Part shown: positions 12,853-46,664 of the stretch, piece by piece
Layout of the letters: the number at the start of each line of letters is the position of its first letter
How positions within the stretch are numbered: position 1 is the stretch's first letter
From: a bacterium
GTDB taxonomy: Bacteria; UBA10199; 2-02-FULL-44-16; JAAZCA01
DNA length: 64,000 nt
NCBI GenBank assembly: GCA_963674695.2
Contig: CAXXGI010000003.1
Span: 1,013,064 to 1,077,063 of the forward strand
Direction of reading: 5' to 3'
The notes under the pieces: model-generated
The model's database searches: none
The model's input: the letters and a program-made list of their open reading frames with translations, nothing else
What the model was told of the DNA's origin: nothing
Position numbers and translations under genes: made by a program

Positions 12853-12936
12853 GCGACCGTGGCGGAATTGGCAGACGCGCTAGCTTCAGGAGCTAGTGGG
12901 AGCAATCTCGTCCCGGTTCGAGTCCGGGCGGTCGCA
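12853..12936 (+). tRNA. tRNA-Leu (anticodon CAG)
   Basis: Cloverleaf by hand. Acceptor GCGACCG/CGGTCGC plus discriminator A; anticodon stem CTAGC/GCTAG with loop TTCAGGA (CAG); long variable arm; T arm CCCGG-TTCGAGT-CCGGG. No encoded CCA. Confidence 0.9.
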
Positions 12937-20855: not shown

Positions 20856-22160
20856 ATGGCGAACGCAAATCTCAATATCGATCTCCACTACGTGACCCGC
20901 GTCGAGGGTCATGGCAACATCGTGGTCAATGCCAAGGATGGCAAGTTGGAAAAGGTGCAGTGGCAGGTCCCTGAGGCACCCCGCTACTTCGAAGCCATGG
21001 TCATCGGCCAGAAGTGGGATGTTCTCCACCACATCACGAGTCGCATCTGCGGCATCTGTTCCATCGGGCACACGCTGGCCTCCTTAAAAACGACCGAAGC
21101 GGCGATGGGGATCACGATCTCCGAGCAGTCACAGCTCTTGCGCAGGCTCGCGATCAACGCCGAGAACCTGCAGAGCCACACGCTGCATGTCGGCTATCTG
21201 GCCCTTCCCGATCTCGTGGGCGCCGGTTCCGTGATTCCGCTGGCCAGCTCCCATCCGGATGAGGTGGCGCTCGTCATCCGTCTGCATCGCTTGTCAAACG
21301 AGATGAGCGACATGATCTGCGGCCGCACCACGCATCCGCAGCGCCTCATCCCCGGCGGCTTCACCAAGGTCCCGACGGCCGAAGAGCTCAAGACCCTGCG
21401 CACGCGCCTGGACGATGGCTTCGCCGACGTGGATGCTTTCGGCAACCTGCTCGTGGCTCTCGCACCGAATTTCCCGAACTTCACGCGCGAGACCGAATAC
21501 ATCTCGATCACCGACAAGAACGAATACGCCTTCTACGACGGCGAACTCTGTTCGAGCCTGGGCGACACCGCGCCGATCACCGATTACCTGGCCTGGACCA
21601 ACGAGTTCATCGTGCCGCAATCGACGGCCAAGTATACGAAGCGCAAACGCGACTCGCTCATGGTGGGTGCGCTGGCCCGCTTCAACAACAACCACACGCA
21701 GCTCCTGCCGAAGGCAGCCGCCTGGGCGAAGAAATTGGGGCTCATCGCTCCCTGTTACAACCCCTATTACAACAACGTCGCCCAGTTCGTCGAGGTCGTG
21801 CACAACATCGAGGATTCGATCATCCAGATCGACAAGCTCCTCGCGGCCGGCATCAAGGACGAGAAGCCAGATGTAACGCCGAAGGCAGGACACGGCATCG
21901 GCACGGTGGAGGTCCCGCGCGGCATCCTGCACCACGACTACACCTATGATGACAAGGGTGTCTGCACGAAGGCCAACTGCATCATCCCGACCAACCAGAA
22001 CCACAACAACATCCAGAAGGACATGGAAGCGCTCGTCCCGACGATCCTGGACAAGCCGCAGGCCGAGGTGGAGCTGATCCTCGAGATGCTCGTTCGCGCC
22101 TACGACCCCTGCATCTCCTGCTCGACACATTATCTGAAGGTGAATTTTAAGAACTCGTGA
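20856..22160 (+). CDS. hyhL: Group 3b [NiFe]-hydrogenase large (alpha) subunit
   Basis: N-terminal Ni-binding motif RICGICSIGH and C-terminal DPCISCSTH, followed by a short extension (YLKVNFKNS) for endopeptidase cleavage. Length is 434 aa. Confidence 0.93.
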   Translation: MANANLNIDLHYVTRVEGHGNIVVNAKDGKLEKVQWQVPEAPRYFEAMVIGQKWDVLHHITSRICGICSIGHTLASLKTTEAAMGITISEQSQLLRRLAINAENLQSHTLHVGYLALPDLVGAGSVIPLASSHPDEVALVIRLHRLSNEMSDMICGRTTHPQRLIPGGFTKVPTAEELKTLRTRLDDGFADVDAFGNLLVALAPNFPNFTRETEYISITDKNEYAFYDGELCSSLGDTAPITDYLAWTNEFIVPQSTAKYTKRKRDSLMVGALARFNNNHTQLLPKAAAWAKKLGLIAPCYNPYYNNVAQFVEVVHNIEDSIIQIDKLLAAGIKDEKPDVTPKAGHGIGTVEVPRGILHHDYTYDDKGVCTKANCIIPTNQNHNNIQKDMEALVPTILDKPQAEVELILEMLVRAYDPCISCSTHYLKVNFKNS

Positions 22161-31844: not shown

Positions 31845-31944
31845 CCGTGACTCGTAATTCGTGACTCGTAACTGGCAACTCGAAAACCATAACCCGTGAC
31901 CCGGAAAACCTGAAATTGATTCCCTCATTACGAGTTACGAGTTA
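31845..31944. repeat. Inverted (GTGACTCG/GTAACTCG) word blocks in the rnfC-rnfD spacer
   Basis: The left block is ccgtgactcgtaattcgtgactcgtaactggcaactcg. The right block is ttacgagttacgagttacg, which is its reverse complement and includes the rnfC stop. Confidence 0.85.
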
Positions 31945-36987: not shown

Positions 36988-37102
36988 GAACGTTTTCCCC
37001 GGGAGGCGGCCTTGAAATCGGTGACCCGTAAATCTCTCCTTGATCGATGATTGTCAACACACTATAGGGCGAGCCTCATTCAAACACAACGCGGGAGTAC
37101 AT

Positions 37103-37492
37103 ATGCATGAGATGGCCATCGGAGAGACGATCCTCAAGGTAATCGACGAACAGGCACAGAAGAACCACTTCACGGTCGTGCGCAGCGCCACGCTCCGGCT
37201 CGGCCGGATGAACGCCTTCGAGCGCAAGAACCTCGAGCTCTGCCTGAAGACCTACAAGGAGGGCGTCTTCGCCCAGACCCGCTTCGACATCGAAGCCGTT
37301 CCGGTCGGCCTTGAGTGCCCTTCCTGCGCCCATCAGTATGAAGATGAACGCTTCGACGATTTCGACTTCGCCCACCGCACCGCCCACGCCCCGGGGCTCT
37401 ATGTCCCCCCCGCCTGCCCCAAGTGCGGCACCAAAGGCGCCACGATCGTCTCCGGCCAGGAAATGGAACTGGTCTCGATCGAAGGGGAATAG
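37103..37492 (+). CDS. hypA: Hydrogenase nickel incorporation protein HypA
   Basis: MHEMAIGETIL start with GGGAG RBS, and the Zn motif CPSC...CPKCG. Length is 129 aa. Confidence 0.9.
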   Translation: MHEMAIGETILKVIDEQAQKNHFTVVRSATLRLGRMNAFERKNLELCLKTYKEGVFAQTRFDIEAVPVGLECPSCAHQYEDERFDDFDFAHRTAHAPGLYVPPACPKCGTKGATIVSGQEMELVSIEGE

Positions 37493-37891: not shown

Positions 37892-40267
37892 ATGAGCATT
37901 TGCGGCCGAAACCAGATTGTTGTCACGGGCACCGTCCAGGGGGTCGGGTTTCGTCCGTTTATCGCGCGGACCGCAACGACACTTGGGCTCGCAGGCTTTG
38001 TGACCAACACCCCTGAGGGCGTGCAGATCGAGGTTCAGGGGCCACCTGAACGGCTGGAGGCATTCCTCGAAGCGCTGCGCCAATCGCCGCCGCCGCTGGC
38101 GCGCATCCAATCGATCGAGAGCAAATCGATTGCGATCCTCGACGAAGCGAGTTTCGTCATCGCCCCCAGCCGATCCGGAGCGGGGACCACCACGATGATC
38201 TCGCCCGACATTGCCCCGTGCGCCGCCTGTGCCGCCGAACTGCTCGACCCGCAGGATCGACGCCATCGCTACCCCTTCATCAACTGCACCGATTGCGGCC
38301 CGCGCTATTCCATCATCCAGGGCCTGCCCTATGACCGCCCGCAGACGACCATGAAGCCCTTTGCGATGTGCGAGGCCTGCGCGACCGAATATGCCGACCC
38401 GACCGATCGTCGGTTTCACGCGCAGCCGGATGCGTGTGAGACGTGTGGACCGAAGATCTCCTTCGTGGTCTCGCAAGATCGTGGTCTCGTGGTCTCGCAC
38501 GACCCCCTTCATGATACCATCGCAGCGCTCGACGAAGGAGCGATCGTTGCGATCAAGGGGGTGGGCGGTTTTCACCTGGCCTGTGATGCACAGAGCGATG
38601 CGGCTGTATGCGAACTGCGTCGCCGCAAACGGCGGGATGAGAAGCCCTTCGCCCTGATGGTGAAAGACCTCGATGCCGCACGCGCCATTTGTCACGTCGA
38701 TGAAACCGAGGCGCAACTGCTGACATCGCCCGAGCGACCGATTGTCCTGCTGCGCAAACGCGACGCCATCCCGGTCGCGCAATCGGTCGCGCCCGGCAAC
38801 CAGAGACTCGGCGTCATGCTTCCCTCCTCCCCCCTGCATCACCTGCTTTTTCACGGGTCACGAGTTACGAGTTACGAGTCACGGATTTTCGTCATGACCA
38901 GCGCCAACATCTCCGATGAGCCGATCGTTCACACCAACGATGAGGCGTGCAGCAAACTGGCCGACATCGCCGATGCGTTTCTCATGCACGACCGCGACAT
39001 CCACGTCCGCATCGACGATTCGATCGCGCGCACGATGAATGGCCGTGCCCTCCTGATGCGTCGCGCACGCGGGTTCGTCCCCGCGCCCATACGGATGAAA
39101 CGCCCGATGCCGCCGATCCTCGCCACCGGCGCCGATCTCAAGGGGGCCATCTGCGTCACGCGCGGCCACAACGCGATCCTCTCGCAACACCTGGGCGACC
39201 TACAAAACGCCGAGGCCCATCGCGGATTCGAAGAAACGGTGGAGCACCTCACCACGCTCTTCGCGGTCCGTCCGGAGATCATCGCCTGCGACCTGCACCC
39301 CGATTATTTCAGCACCCGCTTCGCTGAAACGATCTCACGCTCTCTCGATCTTACGAAACCACGAGACCACGAGACCACGATCTCACGAGTACAACACCAC
39401 CACGCCCATATCGCCAGCTGCATGGCGGAGAACGATCTGCCCAACGAACCGGTCATCGGAATCGCGCTCGATGGCACCGGTTTTGGCACCGATGGCACCA
39501 TCTGGGGGGGCGAGCTGCTCATCGCCGACTACGAGGGGTTCACCCGCGCAGCGCGTTTCAAACCCGTGCCGATGCCGGGCGGCGATGCCGCTGCACGCGA
39601 ACCCTGGCGCATGGCGCTGGCGTACCTTCGGACCACGGACCATGGACCATGGACCAAAAACCAAAACCTCTTCCCATCGGTTCCGCGGGAGAAGATCGAC
39701 CTCGTTCGACAGGTGCTCGAGAAACGCATCAACTGCCCGATGACGTCGAGCTGCGGACGACTTTTCGATGCGATAGCCGCGCTCATCGGCCTGCGCACCG
39801 TGAACACGTTCGAGGGACAGGCCGCCATGGAGCTGGAACAAATTGCCGCGGATCATTGTGATGAAGCATACCCGTATACGATTGAGACACGAGACTCGAG
39901 ACACGAGACTCGAGACCACCCCCCTCTTCAGATAGGCTTTGAGAGAATGATCGAGCAGATCGTCAATGACGCGGTCGCAGGCATATCGCCATCGATCATC
40001 AGCGCCCGCTTCCACAACACCCTCATCGAGACCATCTCCGACGCTTGTCGCCGTATCCGTTCACGGTTCACGGTTCACGGTTCACGAGTGTGCCTCTCCG
40101 GCGGCTGTTTTCAAAACGCGTGCCTTGCGGAGGGACTCAAGAAAAAGCTTGTGGATCAAGGATTTACCGTCTATACGCATGCGCTCGTTCCGCCCAATGA
40201 CGGCGGCATCGCCCTGGGCCAGACCATCGTCGCGGCCCACCGGGCAGAGAGGCAGCAACGACCATGA
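37892..40267 (+). CDS. hypF: Carbamoyltransferase HypF
   Basis: Acylphosphatase domain (VTGTVQGVGFRPF), four CxxC Zn-finger pairs, YrdC-like block (IVAIKGVGGFHLACDA), and Kae1-like block (VQHHHAH, LSGGCFQN). ATG at 37892. It contains six repeat-word insertions (see findings). Confidence 0.95.
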   Translation: MSICGRNQIVVTGTVQGVGFRPFIARTATTLGLAGFVTNTPEGVQIEVQGPPERLEAFLEALRQSPPPLARIQSIESKSIAILDEASFVIAPSRSGAGTTTMISPDIAPCAACAAELLDPQDRRHRYPFINCTDCGPRYSIIQGLPYDRPQTTMKPFAMCEACATEYADPTDRRFHAQPDACETCGPKISFVVSQDRGLVVSHDPLHDTIAALDEGAIVAIKGVGGFHLACDAQSDAAVCELRRRKRRDEKPFALMVKDLDAARAICHVDETEAQLLTSPERPIVLLRKRDAIPVAQSVAPGNQRLGVMLPSSPLHHLLFHGSRVTSYESRIFVMTSANISDEPIVHTNDEACSKLADIADAFLMHDRDIHVRIDDSIARTMNGRALLMRRARGFVPAPIRMKRPMPPILATGADLKGAICVTRGHNAILSQHLGDLQNAEAHRGFEETVEHLTTLFAVRPEIIACDLHPDYFSTRFAETISRSLDLTKPRDHETTISRVQHHHAHIASCMAENDLPNEPVIGIALDGTGFGTDGTIWGGELLIADYEGFTRAARFKPVPMPGGDAAAREPWRMALAYLRTTDHGPWTKNQNLFPSVPREKIDLVRQVLEKRINCPMTSSCGRLFDAIAALIGLRTVNTFEGQAAMELEQIAADHCDEAYPYTIETRDSRHETRDHPPLQIGFERMIEQIVNDAVAGISPSIISARFHNTLIETISDACRRIRSRFTVHGSRVCLSGGCFQNACLAEGLKKKLVDQGFTVYTHALVPPNDGGIALGQTIVAAHRAERQQRP

Positions 40268-40737
40268 TACATCCCGGATTGATCATGCTGCTCATCATCG
40301 CCATCACCCTCATCATTGCCCCCTACGCCATGGCCTGGCGATTGGGTCGGCTGGGAAGGGCGATGCAGAAGAACACACCGGTGGCGACCACTCCGGTTCG
40401 ATTTCAGTCCTGGGTGACGGTGAAGGGAAACCGGGCGCTCACGCGGCAGAGCATCATCTGTCACATGATGCTTGTTGGAGAGACGCTTTCGTTCCGCCTC
40501 TTGTGGGGACCGCCCCGCACGCTACCACTGACCGCGTGCGTGCGCGCCGAAATCCTGACACGCGGCAAACGAGCGACGACCCTGCGCCTCGTCCCGCGCC
40601 ATCCCGATGATCTCGACACGCTCACCATCTCCGGCATCATCGATCTCCCGAAACTGGGCGAAATACTTCAGGCGGCGAACATCGACGTACAGCAGATGGC
40701 CGACGACCGCGGCGCACTGGACCTCATTCGAAACTGA
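40264..40737 (+). CDS. Hypothetical membrane-anchored protein encoded between hypF and hypC
   Basis: The ATG overlaps the hypF stop (ATGA). It has an N-terminal TM helix (GLIMLLIIAITLIIAPYAMAW) followed by a ~120-aa soluble domain with no motif I recognise. GC and codon usage look native. Confidence 0.6.
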   Translation: MIHPGLIMLLIIAITLIIAPYAMAWRLGRLGRAMQKNTPVATTPVRFQSWVTVKGNRALTRQSIICHMMLVGETLSFRLLWGPPRTLPLTACVRAEILTRGKRATTLRLVPRHPDDLDTLTISGIIDLPKLGEILQAANIDVQQMADDRGALDLIRN

Positions 40738-40752
40738 AATTAGGAGTGAATT

Positions 40753-40983
40753 ATGTGCCTGGCCGTACCCATGCAGATCACTGAAATCTCCGGCGACACG
40801 GCAACCGTGAACGTCTCGGGACTGAGCCAGTCGGCAAACGTCTCGCTCATCGACACCCCTGCCATCGGCGATTACGTCCTCATCCATGCGGGATTTGCCA
40901 TCCAACGCATCGATGAAGACGAGGCGTTCAAGACGGCCGAGTTGCTCAATAAGATGGCCTCATTCGTAAACGGTGAACAGTAA
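40753..40983 (+). CDS. hypC: Hydrogenase assembly chaperone HypC
   Basis: MCLAVPMQI N-terminus (essential Cys2). Length is 76 aa. Confidence 0.93.
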   Translation: MCLAVPMQITEISGDTATVNVSGLSQSANVSLIDTPAIGDYVLIHAGFAIQRIDEDEAFKTAELLNKMASFVNGEQ

Positions 40984-40987
40984 ACAG

Positions 40988-41048
40988 TTCACGGTTCACA
41001 GTTCACGGTTCACGGTTCACAGTTCACGGTTCACAGTTCACGGTTCAC
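40988..41048. repeat. (TTCACGGT/TTCACAGT) 8-nt word array, about 7.5 units, in the hypC-hypD spacer
   Basis: The sequence is ttcacggttcacagttcacggttcacggttcacagttcacggttcacagttcacggttcac, ending 2 nt before the hypD ATG. The ORF-track N-terminus of hypD (FTVHSSRFTVHSSRFTVHGS) is its translation. Confidence 0.9.
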
Positions 41049-41050
41049 AT

Positions 41051-42136
41051 ATGAAATACATCACCGAATATCGCGACCGCAATCACGCCAAGGCCCTGGT
41101 CGAAGCGATTGCGCGCGCGGCGAATGATCGTCCCATGACCTTCATGGAGGTCTGCGGCACGCACACGATGTCGCTCGGGCGCTTCGGCATCCGCGAATTG
41201 CTTCCGGAAAACATCCGGCTGATCTCGGGGCCGGGCTGCCCCGTATGCGTCACCCCCAACGCCTATCTCGACCATGCCATCGCGCTGGCGCGCCAGCCAA
41301 AGACGACCATCTGCACCTTCGGCGACATGATGCGCGTGCCCGGCTCCACCTCGAGCCTCGAAAAGGAGCGAAGCCAAGGGGCGGACATCCGTATCGTCTT
41401 CTCGACGCTCGATGCGCTGGCCATTGCGCGCGAACATCCCGATCGACAGATCGTCTTCCTCGGCGTCGGATTCGAAACGACCGCCCCCACGGTCGCCACG
41501 GCGATCAAGACGGCCGCCAACGAGAGGATCCCCAACTTCTCCGTCCTGTGCGCGCACAAGCTGGTCATGCCGGCACTCGAAGCGCTGCTGGCCGGAGAGG
41601 TTCAGCTCGACGGTTTTCTCCTTCCGGGACATGTGAGCGCCATCATCGGCGCGAAGGCCTACCGTCCACTTCTCTCACGCCACCGTATCGCCGGCGCCAT
41701 CGCCGGTTTTGAACCGACCGACATCCTCGAAGCCCTCTTCGAGCTGATTGGGCAGATCACCCATGACGATCCGAAGCTGACGACCGCATACGTGCGCGCC
41801 GTCACCGAGGAGGGCAACCAGCGCGCACGTGCCCTGATGGAGGAGATCTTCGAACCAACCGATGCCGAATGGCGCGGCCTGGGAACGATTCCCGCAAGTG
41901 GCCTAAACATCCGAAAACGTTATTCATCCTTCGATGCGGCAGAGCGTTTCACGATCGAAGTCGAACCGATGCGCGAACCGAAGGGGTGCCGCTGCGGCGA
42001 GATCCTGCAGGGCCGAATTGCGCCAACAGACTGCCCCCTCTTTGGAAAGAATTGCACGCCGACGCATCCGGTGGGTGCCTGCATGGTCTCCAGCGAAGGA
42101 ACGTGTGCGGCGTATTATAAATACCGTGACGCGTAA
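41051..42136 (+). CDS. hypD: Hydrogenase maturation protein HypD
   Basis: MKYITEYRD start. It has the CGTH, GPGCPVCV and GFETT motifs and a C-terminal Cys-rich FeS region. Length is 361 aa. Confidence 0.95.
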   Translation: MKYITEYRDRNHAKALVEAIARAANDRPMTFMEVCGTHTMSLGRFGIRELLPENIRLISGPGCPVCVTPNAYLDHAIALARQPKTTICTFGDMMRVPGSTSSLEKERSQGADIRIVFSTLDALAIAREHPDRQIVFLGVGFETTAPTVATAIKTAANERIPNFSVLCAHKLVMPALEALLAGEVQLDGFLLPGHVSAIIGAKAYRPLLSRHRIAGAIAGFEPTDILEALFELIGQITHDDPKLTTAYVRAVTEEGNQRARALMEEIFEPTDAEWRGLGTIPASGLNIRKRYSSFDAAERFTIEVEPMREPKGCRCGEILQGRIAPTDCPLFGKNCTPTHPVGACMVSSEGTCAAYYKYRDA

Positions 42137-42158
42137 CTCGTGACTCGTGACTCGTGAC
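42125..42158. repeat. (GTGACTCG) word array at the hypD stop
   Basis: The sequence is cgtgacgcgtaactcgtgactcgtgactcgtgac and includes the hypD TAA. Confidence 0.85.
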
Positions 42159-42211
42159 ATGAAAGGACGTAAATCACACGGGCGACAATCGAAACATCAA
42201 CCCTGCCATTT

Positions 42212-42371
42212 TACCGCCATAGCAGTAATTATAGCCATTCCCATCGACACATTCCCACTTTCCATCGAAAAATAGAAATATTTACTGCTGTAGCAGTATT
42301 TTATGTTGAACACCTCATACATAAGGCGTAGACTTACGATATACACAGATATTTTTACTGCTATCGCGGCA
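42212..42371. promoter_or_regulatory. Putative HipB operators (three TACTGCT-N2-AGCAGTA-like palindromes) in an AT-rich promoter region
   Basis: The three sites are TACCGCCATAGCAGTA (42212-42227), TACTGCTGTAGCAGTA (42283-42298, 7-bp perfect arms) and TACTGCTATCGCGGCA (42356-42371). They sit upstream of the HTH gene. Confidence 0.45.
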
Positions 42372-42379
42372 AAAAAGGA

Positions 42380-42613
42380 ATGATTATGGGTAGATCTCTC
42401 GCACATCTCATACGGTCTCATCGGAAAAAGAGCGGTCTCACACAAGCCCAACTCGCAACGATGGCCGGGGTCGGCAAGACCGTCGTCTTTGATGTCGAAC
42501 ATGGCAAGAAGACGATCATATTCGCGACGATTCAGAAGATGCTCAAGGTCCTCAACATTCACCTCATCGCCCAGAGCCCGCTCGAGGGAAACGTCACCAT
42601 TGAGGAGATCTGA
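42380..42613 (+). CDS. hipB: XRE-family HTH protein, HipB-like
   Basis: LRSHRKKSGLTQAQLATMAGVGKTVVFDVEHGK is a Cro/C1-type HTH. It is 77 aa and the first gene of a three-gene module. Confidence 0.85.
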   Translation: MIMGRSLAHLIRSHRKKSGLTQAQLATMAGVGKTVVFDVEHGKKTIIFATIQKMLKVLNIHLIAQSPLEGNVTIEEI

Positions 42614-42614
42614 C

Positions 42615-42923
42615 ATGAAAAAGGCTGCCATTTTCTTTCAGGCAATCAGAGCGGGGACGTTGGAGCAACGCGACGACGGTTCATGTCGCTTCTCCTACGA
42701 ACCGTCGTATGAAGGCCAACCGATCTCACTGACGATGCCAACAGCACAGGCCCACTACGACTTCGACGCCTTCCCCCCCTTCTTCGAAGGCCTCCTCCCC
42801 GAGGGAATACAACTCGAGGCCCTGCTCAAACAACGGAAGATCGATCGCAACGACCCCTTCTCCCAGCTCGTCGCGGTAGGCGCAGATCTCGTGGGAGCTG
42901 TCACGGTCGAGGAGATCGCATGA
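42615..42923 (+). CDS. hipS: HipS-like protein (stand-alone HipA N-terminal subdomain)
   Basis: GAGGAG RBS, 102 aa. It aligns with the first ~105 aa of E. coli HipA (..FFEGLLPEG.., ..LVAVGADLVGAVTV.. vs ..FFDNLLPDS.., ..LSEIGRDSVGAVTL..). Confidence 0.8.
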   Translation: MKKAAIFFQAIRAGTLEQRDDGSCRFSYEPSYEGQPISLTMPTAQAHYDFDAFPPFFEGLLPEGIQLEALLKQRKIDRNDPFSQLVAVGADLVGAVTVEEIA

Positions 42924-43849
42924 GACGCTGTCCGATCACCTATGAACAGATTGCGGAAGACGAGCGCTACTCGAGCGCAGGGCTGAAGCAGCTCTCGCGC
43001 ACCCTCACCGACATCGCCCCCCTCCCCTTTACCGAAGCGGAACAGATTCACGAAGCGATGGCGCGCGCCGACAAGATGTCGATCCAGGGCGTGCAGCCGA
43101 AGCTCAGCGCCGTCCTTCGCGTCAAGGAGGGTCGTTTCGACATCGTCGACCGTGGCGGAACCTACATCCTCAAGCCACAGATTCGATATCCCGAAGTTCC
43201 GGAGAACGAAGCGATAACGATGACGCTCGCGGCATCGCTCGGCATTGACGTCCCTGTGCACGGCCTCGTCGAAGGTCGTGACAAGCATTGGACCTACTTC
43301 ATCAAACGCTTCGATCGTCTGGGGAAGGGACGCAAGCTCCCCGTCGAAGATTTCGCACAGCTGGCCGGAGCGACGCGCGAAACGAAATATCGCAGCTCGA
43401 TGGAACAGGTCGCCAGGATCGTCGAAACCCATTGCACCTTCCCCATGATCGAGCTCCGCAAGCTCTTTGTACGCACGCTCTTCAATTTCCTCACCGGCAA
43501 CGAGGATATGCACCTCAAGAACTTCTCCCTCATCACGCGCGATGGAAAGGTGGAACTCACCCCCGCCTACGACTTCCTCAATTCGACAATCGCGCTTCCG
43601 AATCCGATGGAAGAGCTCGCACTTCCCCTCAAAGGAAAAAAGGCGAGGCTCACGCGTAAGTACCTCATCGCATACTACGGTGAAGAACGACTGGAGTTGA
43701 ACAAGAAGGTCATCGGTGATGTCCTGGGGAACATACAGCGAGTCATTCCATTCTGGAGAGAACTCATCGACAGGAGCTTTCTCTCGGCGAAAATGAAGGA
43801 GCGGTATACGATGGTATTGGACAGGCGTCTCAAAACACTTGGGCTGTGA
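42920..43849 (+). CDS. hipT: HipT-like Ser/Thr kinase toxin (HipA core kinase lacking the N-terminal subdomain)
   Basis: The start overlaps the hipS stop. It has the Gly-rich loop MSIQGVQPKLS, the FIKRFDR block, and the catalytic motif GNEDMHLKNFS (HipA: GATDGHAKNFS), followed by LTPAYDF. Length is 309 aa. Confidence 0.85.
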   Translation: MRRCPITYEQIAEDERYSSAGLKQLSRTLTDIAPLPFTEAEQIHEAMARADKMSIQGVQPKLSAVLRVKEGRFDIVDRGGTYILKPQIRYPEVPENEAITMTLAASLGIDVPVHGLVEGRDKHWTYFIKRFDRLGKGRKLPVEDFAQLAGATRETKYRSSMEQVARIVETHCTFPMIELRKLFVRTLFNFLTGNEDMHLKNFSLITRDGKVELTPAYDFLNSTIALPNPMEELALPLKGKKARLTRKYLIAYYGEERLELNKKVIGDVLGNIQRVIPFWRELIDRSFLSAKMKERYTMVLDRRLKTLGL

Positions 43850-43852
43850 TTA

Positions 43853-45544
43853 TCACTCGATATCCGACGGCGGTTTCACGCCGGTGCAGGCCTCGGCGCT
43901 CCCCCCCTCCAGGAAGCACTTCACGACACCTCTCAACTCAGGTCCGGCGTAGCTCCACAAACCCGGCTTCTCGAAAAGCTGCGCAAACCACTCGATGGGA
44001 GTTTCTCCGACATCCGAAAAATCGGTCCAGAGAGGATATCTGACCCATTGCAGGGAACCTTCGACACAAGCATTCATTCGATGCGCGCGCTCACCATTCA
44101 AGGTAAATCTCCAAAAAGCTCCCTTGATCGGGTTTTGACACATCTCTGACAGCAATCCAATTCTGAAAGACGTCAGGCTATTTCGATCCCCATGGACAAG
44201 GAAGTCGTCGATGCTATGGCCGAGTTCATGCCGCGCAACCTTATACTGAAGCTCCAGCGTAGGAAGCACTCCTGTGCCAAAGCGATTCGCAAAGGGATTA
44301 TAGACCGCCGCTGCCTTGCACGGATAGCCAAAAAGGGATTCCATAAGAGAGGCGATATCATCCGAAGCAAGCGTCGGAGGACGCTCGGTTTCTGGATCGA
44401 TGCCGATAAATGTAAGTCCTCGTTCATCACCCTCGCCCTGGGCCCAGCGACGGACCATATGCGGCCCGAACGAGCGCATCGCCTCGCCGATCGCGAAGAG
44501 GCGTTTGGCGAAAGCATTCGGACCACCCTGGAGAATCACCGCTTCTTCGCCGAGCTCCGCCGGGAGCGCAATCTCGAAGAGATGTCCGTTCACCGAGATA
44601 CGTCCGTTTTTCGGATCAACTTTCGTCAATTGATCGATCACCGGCTTCAGCTGACGCCGTTCATCCTCCGTCAGCGCACCGGAGCGGTGAAAGAGCGCAA
44701 AGGCATGCCATGCCTCTTCGACCGAGGAGAGACGATCATCGTCCTCAACATCGAGACGCGCTCGCAAATCGGGCGACATCGGCTGCGGAAACGCGACACT
44801 CCGATAAAAGGGAAGAGGTGCCTCCGGATACTCGGAGATGGGATCGAATTCGACCCGAACCAACGCGTTTCGAGTAGAGTCAATAACGTTCTCGGCATTG
44901 ATTTTCAGCAACGTCGAGAACCTTTCCGGCGATTGACGAAAGAGTTCAATCGCACTTGTTTCTATGATAAACTCTCGTTGGTCGAAGTTGATCTCCACAG
45001 TACTCGTCGACCAAAGCAGCTGCAAGCCGTACCGGCGAATAAGATCCTCCATCATCCACCGCACCTCCGGCGTCTCGAACGTCAGATGGTCGGCCATGTC
45101 TGATTGCACCTTCATTCGCTCGCAGACATCGAGACTCGAACACTCCATCTCCAGATGTGCAATGTCACCTTCCATTTCGCGAATATCGAAATCGACATTC
45201 CACTTTCCATTCCGTGCCCAACGAATAACATGAATGGACTCCACCGGTTGATGCAAGAGCAACTCAAGGCGTTCCTCTATCGATGCGCGATAGGTGTCGA
45301 CGAGCTCTTCATCGTTGCCACAGGCGCGCCGTTCAAGCTTCGCGCCCGCCTCGGTGACCACCCCTGAACAATGCGCGGGACCGGCCTCGCCGCGATCGAA
45401 ACTCACGTCGATCTGCCGCTCACCGCTCTCGTCTTGCCGTTCGGAATAGCGATAGATATCCTCACAGACGAGATTCTCCGGAGGCGAAGCACTGCCCTTC
45501 TGTTTTTCCAGAACGGTCCCCATCGCACACTCCTTCTCCTTCAT
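43853..45544 (-). CDS. Orphan cytoplasmic protein with C-terminal HExxH (HELGH) motif
   Basis: 563 aa from ATG 45544 (GGAG 6 nt upstream). An ATG at 45523 and a TTG at 45604 are also possible. It has no signal peptide or TM helix. The only recognisable motif is VARHELGHSIDDF. GC looks lower than in flanking genes. The overlapping plus-strand ORF 44192-45103 is Arg-rich shadow. Confidence 0.7.
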   Translation of the reverse strand: MKEKECAMGTVLEKQKGSASPPENLVCEDIYRYSERQDESGERQIDVSFDRGEAGPAHCSGVVTEAGAKLERRACGNDEELVDTYRASIEERLELLLHQPVESIHVIRWARNGKWNVDFDIREMEGDIAHLEMECSSLDVCERMKVQSDMADHLTFETPEVRWMMEDLIRRYGLQLLWSTSTVEINFDQREFIIETSAIELFRQSPERFSTLLKINAENVIDSTRNALVRVEFDPISEYPEAPLPFYRSVAFPQPMSPDLRARLDVEDDDRLSSVEEAWHAFALFHRSGALTEDERRQLKPVIDQLTKVDPKNGRISVNGHLFEIALPAELGEEAVILQGGPNAFAKRLFAIGEAMRSFGPHMVRRWAQGEGDERGLTFIGIDPETERPPTLASDDIASLMESLFGYPCKAAAVYNPFANRFGTGVLPTLELQYKVARHELGHSIDDFLVHGDRNSLTSFRIGLLSEMCQNPIKGAFWRFTLNGERAHRMNACVEGSLQWVRYPLWTDFSDVGETPIEWFAQLFEKPGLWSYAGPELRGVVKCFLEGGSAEACTGVKPPSDIE

Positions 45545-45647
45545 TATCGTCTCCACGATGGGGAGAAGTTGCCGACATATGTAGATTGTCGCTGCCAAGG
45601 GCAATTTTTCAGTGCGAACAGGGCGTCATTCTGATAGGGCAACCGCC

Positions 45648-46664
45648 ATGTCTCCTCCATCCGAACACATCCTGATGGCCCACGGCGCTGGCGGCACGCA
45701 GAGTCGTGAGCTGGTCGCTGAGCTCTTCGCCCGACATTTTTCCAACCCCACATTGGAGGCGATGAACGATGCCGCCATTATCGACGCGCCAACGGGAAAG
45801 ATCGCGCTGACCACCGACGCCTATGTCGTCCGTCCGCTCTTCTTTCCGGGGGGCAACATCGGAAAACTCTCGATCTGCGGAACGGTGAACGACCTGGCCG
45901 TATCGGGCGCAGCCCCCGTGGCGCTGACCGCCTCGTTTGTCATTCAGGAGGGTTTTTCGATCGAAGAACTCGAACGGATTGTCATCTCGATGGCCCAAAC
46001 CGCACGCGATGCGGGCGTCGCTATCGTCGCGGGTGATACGAAGGTGGTCGAACACGCCGGTATCGACGGACTCACGATCACGACCGCGGGTCTGGGACGA
46101 CTGGTGACCGAAGAGCCGCTGATGAGTTCGCGCATCGAGGCAGGCGATGTCGTCCTGATCAATGGGAACATCGCCGATCACGGCATGGCCATCATGGCGC
46201 AGCGCGAAGGGCTCTCCTTTACGACGACGATCGAGAGCGACTGCGCCTGCCTCTGGCCTCTCGTTGAATCACTCCTGACCACCGTACCGAACGTGCGCTT
46301 CATGCGCGATGCCACCCGCGGGGGCTTGGCCGCGGTCCTCAACGAATGTTGTGAACACAATCCCTTTGGCCTCGATATCGATGAAACCGCCATTCCGCTG
46401 AATGAAACGACGGCCGCCGCTTGCGAAATCGTCGGTCTCGACCCGCTGGCGGTCGCCAACGAGGGAAAGCTCATAGCGGTCGTTCCGGCATCCGACGCCC
46501 AGCGAGCCCTCGACGTCATGCGCGGACACCCCCTCGGCACGGATGCCGCCATCATCGGGCAGGCCACCGCCGAGGATGCCGGGCGTGTTCGCCTGCGCAC
46601 AGCCGTGGGAAGCACGCGCCTGGTCGCCATGCCCTCAGGCGAGCTGCTGCCGAGGATATGTTGA
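45648..46664 (+). CDS. hypE: Hydrogenase maturation protein HypE
   Basis: AIR-synthase-like fold (MAHGAGG, DDAA, GDTKV) and the diagnostic C-terminal ..LPRIC. ATG at 45648. Confidence 0.93.
   Translation: MSPPSEHILMAHGAGGTQSRELVAELFARHFSNPTLEAMNDAAIIDAPTGKIALTTDAYVVRPLFFPGGNIGKLSICGTVNDLAVSGAAPVALTASFVIQEGFSIEELERIVISMAQTARDAGVAIVAGDTKVVEHAGIDGLTITTAGLGRLVTEEPLMSSRIEAGDVVLINGNIADHGMAIMAQREGLSFTTTIESDCACLWPLVESLLTTVPNVRFMRDATRGGLAAVLNECCEHNPFGLDIDETAIPLNETTAAACEIVGLDPLAVANEGKLIAVVPASDAQRALDVMRGHPLGTDAAIIGQATAEDAGRVRLRTAVGSTRLVAMPSGELLPRIC

Follow-up and report, generated by a model that had tools for sequence, protein, structure and literature searches.

Location and synteny of the hypD-hypE islet

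The hyp gene cluster of an uncultured bacterium from a small phylum (93 species genomes) contains, between hypD and hypE, a 3.5-kb islet made of a HipBST toxin-antitoxin module and the gene of a 563-aa protein with an HExxH motif. The window, that is, the whole 64,000-nucleotide stretch of DNA that was analysed, corresponds to C3:1013064-1077063 of the 3-contig, 3.03-Mb genome G000, a metagenome-assembled genome rated 100% complete, and lies on a contig of 1.09 Mb. The gene map was based on a list of open reading frames (ORFs) and on profile searches (Pfam, NCBIfam). It gives the order hypA, hypF, orfX, hypC, hypD, hipB, hipS, hipT, the 563-aa HExxH ORF on the minus strand and hypE, and on the 3' side of hypE follow a TPM-domain gene, a 245-aa gene and lemA. 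From the end of hypD (42136) to the start of hypE (45648) the gap measures 3511 bp. An earlier interpretation made from the letters of this DNA (the sequence-only reading) had placed hypE 3.5 kb after hypD, the gap holding hipB-hipS-hipT in plus orientation and a convergent minus-strand gene of 563 aa, and the map confirms this arrangement. Only 3 bp separate the stop codons of hipT and the 563-aa gene. The two genes that flank the islet are intact, and hypE retains its C-terminal PRIC motif.

The hyp clusters of five related genomes (G006, G008, G036, G026 and G011) served for comparison. The nearest comparators share only 60-69% protein identity with the window: 65-69% for hypD in G006 and G008, and 60-62% for the hypE of relatives. 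In the two genomes of the same family the hypD-hypE gap is ~32 bp (G006) and ~100 bp (G008), and in G036, which belongs to the same class, it is 23 bp, so that short spacing (23-100 bp) is found in three of the five clusters. The gap is ~490 bp in G026 and ~810 bp in G011. G006 has the complete order apbE-hypA-hypF-orfX-hypC-hypD-hypE-TPM-orf245-lemA, and the wider synteny (apbE-hypA...hypE-TPM-orf245-lemA) is conserved in relatives. None of the five related clusters has the same four genes between hypD and hypE.

The same picture was obtained from 80 metagenomic hypE loci, 68 of which had sufficient upstream DNA for judging. hypD lay directly upstream on the same strand in 65 of these 68. The gap was below 160 bp in 55 loci and reached 1.7 kb at most, these values being approximate because they were taken from the ends of tblastn matches. 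Because hypD-hypE adjacency is near-universal and the gaps elsewhere are short, the 3.5-kb gap with four genes is, on the evidence of synteny, derived and rare. The proposal of the sequence-only reading that accessory DNA lies between the two genes is thus borne out by the empty sites in family-level relatives and by this adjacency. As judged by synteny, which establishes it, the insertion is real, and it is also unremarkable. The coordinates of the features are collected in Table 1.

Table 1. Coordinates of the hyp cluster, the islet and its control elements in the window
Feature	Position	Strand	Remarks
hypA	37100-37492		
hypF	end at 40267		
orfX	40264-40737		157 aa, no family assigned; coupled between hypF and hypC
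hypC	40753-40983		
hypD	41051-42136	+	intact, upstream flank; Pfam HypD E=1e-152, profile positions 3-351 of 351
Heptamer array (CGTGACT)x4.9	42125-42158	+	overlaps hypD stop; tandem repeat finder
Predicted hipBST promoter/operator region	42159-42379	+	221 bp, 39.4% GC
HipB-box palindrome 1	42212-42227		TACCGCCATAGCAGTA
HipB-box palindrome 2	42283-42298		TACTGCTGTAGCAGTA
HipB-box palindrome 3	42356-42371		TACTGCTATCGCGGCA; degenerate
hipB	42380-42613	+	77-aa HTH repressor; Pfam HTH_3 E=1.5e-10
hipS	42615-42923	+	102-aa antitoxin, HipA N-terminal subdomain; Pfam Couple_hipA E=1.6e-25
hipT	42920-43849	+	309-aa HipA-type Ser/Thr kinase toxin; Pfam HipA_C E=4e-47
563-aa gene	43853-45544	-	orphan HExxH protein; convergent with hipT
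Divergent spacer, 563-aa gene/hypE	45545-45647		103 bp, 52.4% GC
hypE	45648-46664	+	intact, downstream flank; TIGR02124 442 bits, profile positions 1-332 of 332

The HipBST cassette and the HExxH gene

The three hip genes are closely coupled. The TGA of hipB is separated by 1 nt from the ATG of hipS, and the TGA of hipS overlaps the ATG of hipT (ATGA). HipB scored 66.6 bits against TIGR03070 (couple_hipB), slightly under the cut-off of 71.65, and HipS scored 95.6 bits against TIGR03071, the cut-off of which is 27.8. Among known structures, HipS matched HipS(Lp) of Legionella pneumophila (PDB 7vkb_B) at E=1.8e-35, and HipT matched HipT(Lp) (PDB 8ezr/7vkb) over its full length at E=8e-115 with ~59-62% identity. 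The P-loop of HipT contains a single serine, Ser54 (KMS54IQGVQ), and Asp196 and Asp218 are present; the counterparts in HipT(Lp) are S54, D197 and D219 (doi 10.1101/2022.11.26.518041). Neither TrpS nor GltX gave rescue from HipT of the Legionella branch (doi 10.1101/2022.11.26.518041). By analogy, P-loop ejection would be the means by which HipS inhibits HipT, and HipB would be the transcriptional repressor.

Relatives of this system are numerous. We confirmed 584 of them in genome contigs, the best only 55-62% identical, in hosts that include Legionellales, Verrucomicrobiota, Bacteroidota, Ignavibacteriota, Thermodesulfobacteriota, Deferribacterota and others. Among 80 loci drawn from more than 10 phyla, 79 keep hipB, hipS and hipT side by side, and in none of the 80 were hyp genes found near hipBST. 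The HipT tree does not follow taxonomy, and the HipT of the window stands on its own long branch (length 0.52) without a supported sister. This type of HipT occurs in three other genomes among the 22 of the order, at 60-62% identity, and one of these genomes has no hyp genes; the copies from the order are no closer than those from other phyla. As to a donor of hipBST, no HipT above 62% identity was found and the tree offered no sister group. On these sequence comparisons, HipBST appears as an ordinary member of a widespread, already described Legionella-type branch.

The sequence-only reading had noticed that the first ~220 bp of the intervening DNA are AT-rich, which is correct. This stretch contains three HipB-box palindromes of the consensus TACYG-N6-CRGTA (two strict copies and one degenerate), spaced at 71-73 bp. 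In the 300 nt before hipB, 130 copies of the consensus were counted at 62 of 74 hipBST loci from many phyla, with up to three copies per locus, against only three in 735 kb of surrounding DNA. Because the palindromes recur upstream of hipB across phyla, the AT-rich stretch is best read as the conserved triple-operator region of the cassette, its own promoter/operator DNA rather than an anonymous border. The Legionella HipB binds the 200-bp region upstream of its operon, and the terms operator and palindrome are absent from the study of that protein (doi 10.1101/2022.11.26.518041). A candidate promoter, TTGAAC-N17-TAGACT, may be placed at 42306-42334 from hexamers read in the sequence. Together, the genes and their upstream DNA have the appearance of a self-contained cassette that carries its own regulatory region.

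The 563-aa protein was assigned to no family by Pfam, NCBIfam or PADLOC. Its relatives are very few: three proteins in a word-indexed set of 5.8 billion and 12 matches among 1.84 billion representatives, and within the phylum the family was present in two of 93 genomes. Neither Pfam nor NCBIfam has a family that fits any of the 12 members, and Pfam gave no match for them at E<=10. H439, E440, H443, D446 and D447 are at least 90% conserved across the 12 members (motif RHELGHSxDD), and other conserved features are an EF-hand-like DxDGDGxIS loop and the block RLFAIGEAMRSFGP. An AlphaFold2 (AF2) model built from the 12-sequence alignment reached a pLDDT of 78.7 and a pTM of 0.80; an earlier model, based on three aligned sequences only, was of poor quality (pLDDT 48.9). 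Foldseek searches against PDB and BFVD returned no significant match (best E 0.046, TM <0.22). Lethal-factor structures appeared there as weak whole-length rows (E 0.2-0.7, TM <=0.22), and we do not regard them as evidence. The family profile matched M13 peptidases weakly over the HExxH region (E=0.07), the matches to EF-hand loops were also weak, and the order of secondary structures around HExxH in the AF2 model is compatible with a zincin. We infer from these features that the protein is probably a zinc-dependent hydrolase of an undescribed family.

The distribution of the 563-aa family is separate from that of hipBST. No homologue of the gene was found in the 80 hipBST loci, and no hipBST was found in the seven genomic contexts examined for the family. 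The closest homologue is 43-46% identical and is located in the genome of a relative, where its neighbours match, with 44-76% identity and in syntenic order, the genes at C1:286-298 kb of the present genome, a different locus. One homologue is convergent with a VapBC pair. Another member, P0005 (L178 765-7237), lies in an island with integrase, AlpA and HTH_17 genes, directly after a 54-aa RHH (CopG-like) gene, a hint that integrative elements can carry members of the family. Other members are placed among unrelated genes. Separately, two homologues (L013 2894-6335 and L187 1469-4185) are each convergent with a radical-SAM gene, with 8-12 bp between the gene ends; the arrangement may recur in the family or be due to coincidence. 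Because hipBST and the 563-aa gene occur apart elsewhere, the islet appears to consist of two unrelated parts, and its earlier description as one compact unit has to be given up.

The GC content of the islet, which had been judged by eye to be lower than that of its flanks, is indeed 54.5% against 61%. The difference is modest, however, since the genome averages 58.5% (standard deviation 4.0) and the islet falls at the 11th percentile among equal-sized genome windows. Its tetranucleotide distance is equalled or exceeded by 18% of genome windows. GC at third codon positions (GC3) is 0.68-0.72 for hipB, hipS and hipT (36th-52nd percentile; genome mean 0.70) and 0.61 for the 563-aa gene (17th percentile), and by synonymous-codon likelihood all four genes are typical (percentiles 0.32-0.59). 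The lower GC of the islet was traced to the regulatory region and to amino-acid composition, which depresses GC at codon positions 1 and 2 of the islet genes. Compositional distinctness, which the sequence-only reading expected of both GC and codon usage, is therefore not upheld, GC3 and codon usage being host-like, and composition was rejected as evidence of a foreign origin, with all four measures inside the range of the genome. The median GC3 of hipT homologues elsewhere is 0.35. The host-like GC3 of the present hipT suggests either long residence or a high-GC donor.

Borders, entry and alternative explanations

The only border feature recognised earlier was an array at the hypD stop, described as a GTGACTCG array. 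It is in fact (CGTGACT)x4.9, a spacer repeat found throughout the genome. Its unit is also present at 31846, 34174, 36955 and 38856 of the window, the CGTGACT dimer has 25 matches in the window against 0.47 expected, and 64 tandem-repeat rows were reported across the window by the tandem repeat finder. BLAST of both borders against the genome located the array at dozens of sites on all three contigs, and apart from this array the islet is single copy, including the 45545-45647 spacer. The hypD-hypE spacers of relatives are likewise made of 7-8-nt arrays, often as inverted blocks. Because its unit recurs genome-wide, the array does not mark a border; it is native spacer sequence and not the end of an element. 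No heptamer arrays were found around hipBST in the relatives G005 and G013.

Pfam, tRNA and repeat scans agree with the earlier observation that no integrase, transposase, tRNA or direct repeat marks the borders. There is no Pfam domain of an integrase or transposase in the islet, no direct repeats were found flanking it, the nearest tRNA is at 12853, with none within 29 kb of the islet, and the Rfam scan gave nothing relevant. A 16-nt inverted pair (42182-42197 and 45577-45592) that is 81% complementary was detected; its left arm follows the stop of hypD by 46 nt, and its right arm precedes the start of hypE by 56 nt. Its perfect core of 9 nt reads GCGACAATC at 42182 and GATTGTCGC at ~45584. 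Between two borders of ~100 nt, chance alone would produce a 9-nt match in roughly 5% of cases.

In the divergent spacer upstream of hypE no sigma-70-like site passed the scan, and the best relaxed match (8/12) has a score attained by 36% of segments drawn at random from the genome. The new promoter that the sequence-only reading proposed for hypE in this spacer has no support in the sequence. After hypD, at the hipT convergent junction and before hypE, neither a terminator-like hairpin nor a stable fold was found; all z-scores were positive (0.10 for 45545-45647). Since neither a promoter-like site nor a terminator was found, read-through that starts at the hyp or hipB promoters and runs antisense through the 563-aa gene would be as plausible as a new hypE promoter.

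We consider it highly probable that lineage-specific accessory DNA, made of two unrelated parts, entered the hypD-hypE spacer in an ancestor of the genus. That spacer would have been short and filled with repeats. A complete Legionella-type hipBST would have brought its own regulatory region, HipB repressing the operon at three phased palindromes and HipS keeping the HipT kinase inactive, and free HipT would arrest growth by phosphorylating its target. The second part would be a single gene, convergent with hipT, whose rare HExxH product probably binds zinc. Because neither part came with a recombinase, entry would most likely have occurred by illegitimate recombination, or by homologous recombination via the flanks. 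The host-like codon usage would fit a long residence in the genome or a donor with a composition like that of the host. hypD and hypE are intact, and hypE is presumably still expressed, either from a promoter that escaped recognition or by read-through of the islet.

Several points weigh against this explanation. GC, GC3, tetranucleotide frequencies and codon usage all stay within the genome range and give no support to a foreign origin. No same-genus genome was found in the collections searched, where the best metagenomic hypE match was 53% identical, and for this reason the comparison cannot date the insertion or fix its junctions to the base. The promoter of hypE was not recognised, so that continued expression of hypE is assumed. 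Finally, the inverted match near both borders could indicate a single bounded element instead of two events. Such an element would be a composite, non-autonomous unit of 3.4 kb (~42182-45592) with short terminal inverted repeats mobilised in trans, or else the islet might have been transferred as a block from a donor in which the two units already lay next to each other. The 9-nt core close to the hypD stop and the hypE start is what this would leave, and the 3 bp between the stops of hipT and the 563-aa gene leave no spare DNA between the units. However, the border match lies near chance level, the rest of the islet, its ends included, is single copy in the genome, the two units differ in GC3 (0.68-0.72 against 0.61), and no locus examined for either of them, whether the 80 of hipBST or the seven of the 563-aa family, contained the other. 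A single event is therefore unlikely, though worth keeping in mind.

The tight convergence has also to be considered in functional terms, since the HExxH protein might belong to the toxin-antitoxin module as a protease acting on HipS or HipB, or as a second effector, making a four-gene system. The homologue convergent with VapBC and the one placed behind an RHH antitoxin-like gene of an integrase island would suit such a tie, but the co-occurrence it predicts is missing from the 80 hipBST loci, four other contexts of the family are without a toxin-antitoxin gene, PADLOC gave no match, and the protease activity is itself putative; we regard the idea as improbable. Still less credit can be given to an ancestral presence of the four genes at this site with later deletion in relatives. 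The genes do have host-like codon usage, and extra genes are present in other hyp clusters of the phylum, but these are different genes, the distribution of HipT and of the 563-aa family is patchy, HipT relatives from the order are no nearer than those from other phyla, and independent precise losses would be needed in G006, G008, G011, G036, G026 and 65 metagenomic lineages. The least credible explanation is an artefact, a chimeric join at repeat arrays during assembly of the metagenome. The left junction does adjoin a genome-wide heptamer array; the array is only 34 bp long, however, repeats are absent from the right junction, the flanking genes are complete and in register, with synteny conserved to the left and to the right, and the locus lies on a 1.09-Mb contig of a 3-contig genome rated 100% complete. 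The entry of two unrelated pieces of accessory DNA is thus the explanation that we prefer.

The hyp genes had been regarded as a housekeeping operon, a view that does not hold within this group, as hypD is carried by only six of 41 related genomes. In the present genome they are probably still in use, because the large subunit gene of a NiFe hydrogenase is located nearby (window ~20982-22130, ~15 kb upstream) and hypE is full length. No match to hypB (TIGR00073) was found anywhere in the genome, though hypA, C, D, E and F are present. The 157-aa orfX (40264-40737) has a counterpart at the same position in G006 with 36% identity and looks like a real, lineage-restricted gene of the hyp cluster. 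In the hypC-hypD spacer (40987-41048), which is filled by a (GTTCACG)x8.9 heptamer array, the repeat gives the hypD ORF a spurious in-frame N-terminal extension (FTVHSSRFTVH...), the true start being the ATG at 41051.

Other hyp clusters of the phylum have additional genes of their own. In G011 a gene for a 4Fe-4S membrane protein separates hypD from hypE. A second extra gene of this cluster, inserted in opposite orientation between hypE and the TPM gene (L010 2605-5148), encodes an 847-aa orphan lipoprotein with an HEMLH motif; it belongs to no Pfam family, and similarity to the 563-aa gene was not detected. G026 has a PD-(D/E)XK_3 (GxxExxY-type) gene between hypD and hypE (L012 9446-9932), flanked by GCTGATT-type heptamers with the reverse complement on the other side. 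Its hypD, in addition, has an internal insertion that yields two separate matches within one 429-aa ORF. In G006, two orphan ORFs of 246 and 192 aa without Pfam matches are placed between hypA and hypF (L008 13851-15340); in the window, this gap is ~400 bp and non-coding. Different lineage-specific genes are thus found in the hyp spacers of four of the six clusters examined (this genome, G011, G026 and G006). It is conceivable, but rather doubtful on these few clusters, that repeat-filled hyp spacers act in the phylum as sites where small accessory genes are captured without a recombinase. If heptamer arrays favoured such capture, through replication slippage, hairpins or microhomology, operons would have a general route of colonisation that needs no mobile-element machinery.

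The locus is a clean case of a toxin-antitoxin cassette that, together with its own operators, lies inside a gene cluster that is almost always contiguous, without mobility genes or a compositional trace. Synteny, and not GC content, is the reliable test for islets of this kind. For annotation, the transcription of hypE here may differ from the usual arrangement. The analysis also draws attention to a very rare HExxH family with a confident predicted structure, for which no structural relative was found and no function is assigned.

Comparison with known systems

Measured against classical genomic islands and integrative elements, the islet lacks their usual marks (an integrase, a tRNA or att site, and direct repeats). 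The array at the hypD stop resembles STRR-like spacer arrays in that (CGTGACT)n is one of many 7-8-nt spacer arrays in the genome; at this hypD-hypE spacer it forms a single block, whereas the arrays of relatives often form inverted blocks. The 563-aa protein has in common with zincins such as the M13 peptidases (ECE-1, PDB 3dwb) an HExxH motif followed by DD, and the two are alike in a short beta-hairpin before the motif and helices with a conserved Glu (EWFA) after it. The protein differs from zincins in its extra N-terminal beta-rich domain and EF-hand-like loop, with no evident signal peptide.

The HipBST of E. coli O127:H6 (PDB 7ab3-7ab5) has the same tripartite design, with HipS as the antitoxin and HipT as the kinase. 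Its HipT is much more distant from that of the window (E=7e-33), has a double-serine SxS P-loop and targets TrpS (doi 10.1101/2022.11.26.518041). The closest known system is the HipBST of L. pneumophila (Lpg2368-Lpg2370; PDB 7vkb, 7wcf, 8ezr, 8ezs). In contrast to that system, the one in the window, with its predicted toxin activity, belongs to an uncultured bacterium of a small phylum, and the cassette is located inside a hyp cluster without a Dot/Icm context and has a degenerate third operator. The two have in common the three-gene order with coupled junctions, the single-serine SIQ P-loop of the Legionella-branch type with the catalytic and Mg-binding Asp residues and, likewise, an AT-rich upstream region with repressor sites.

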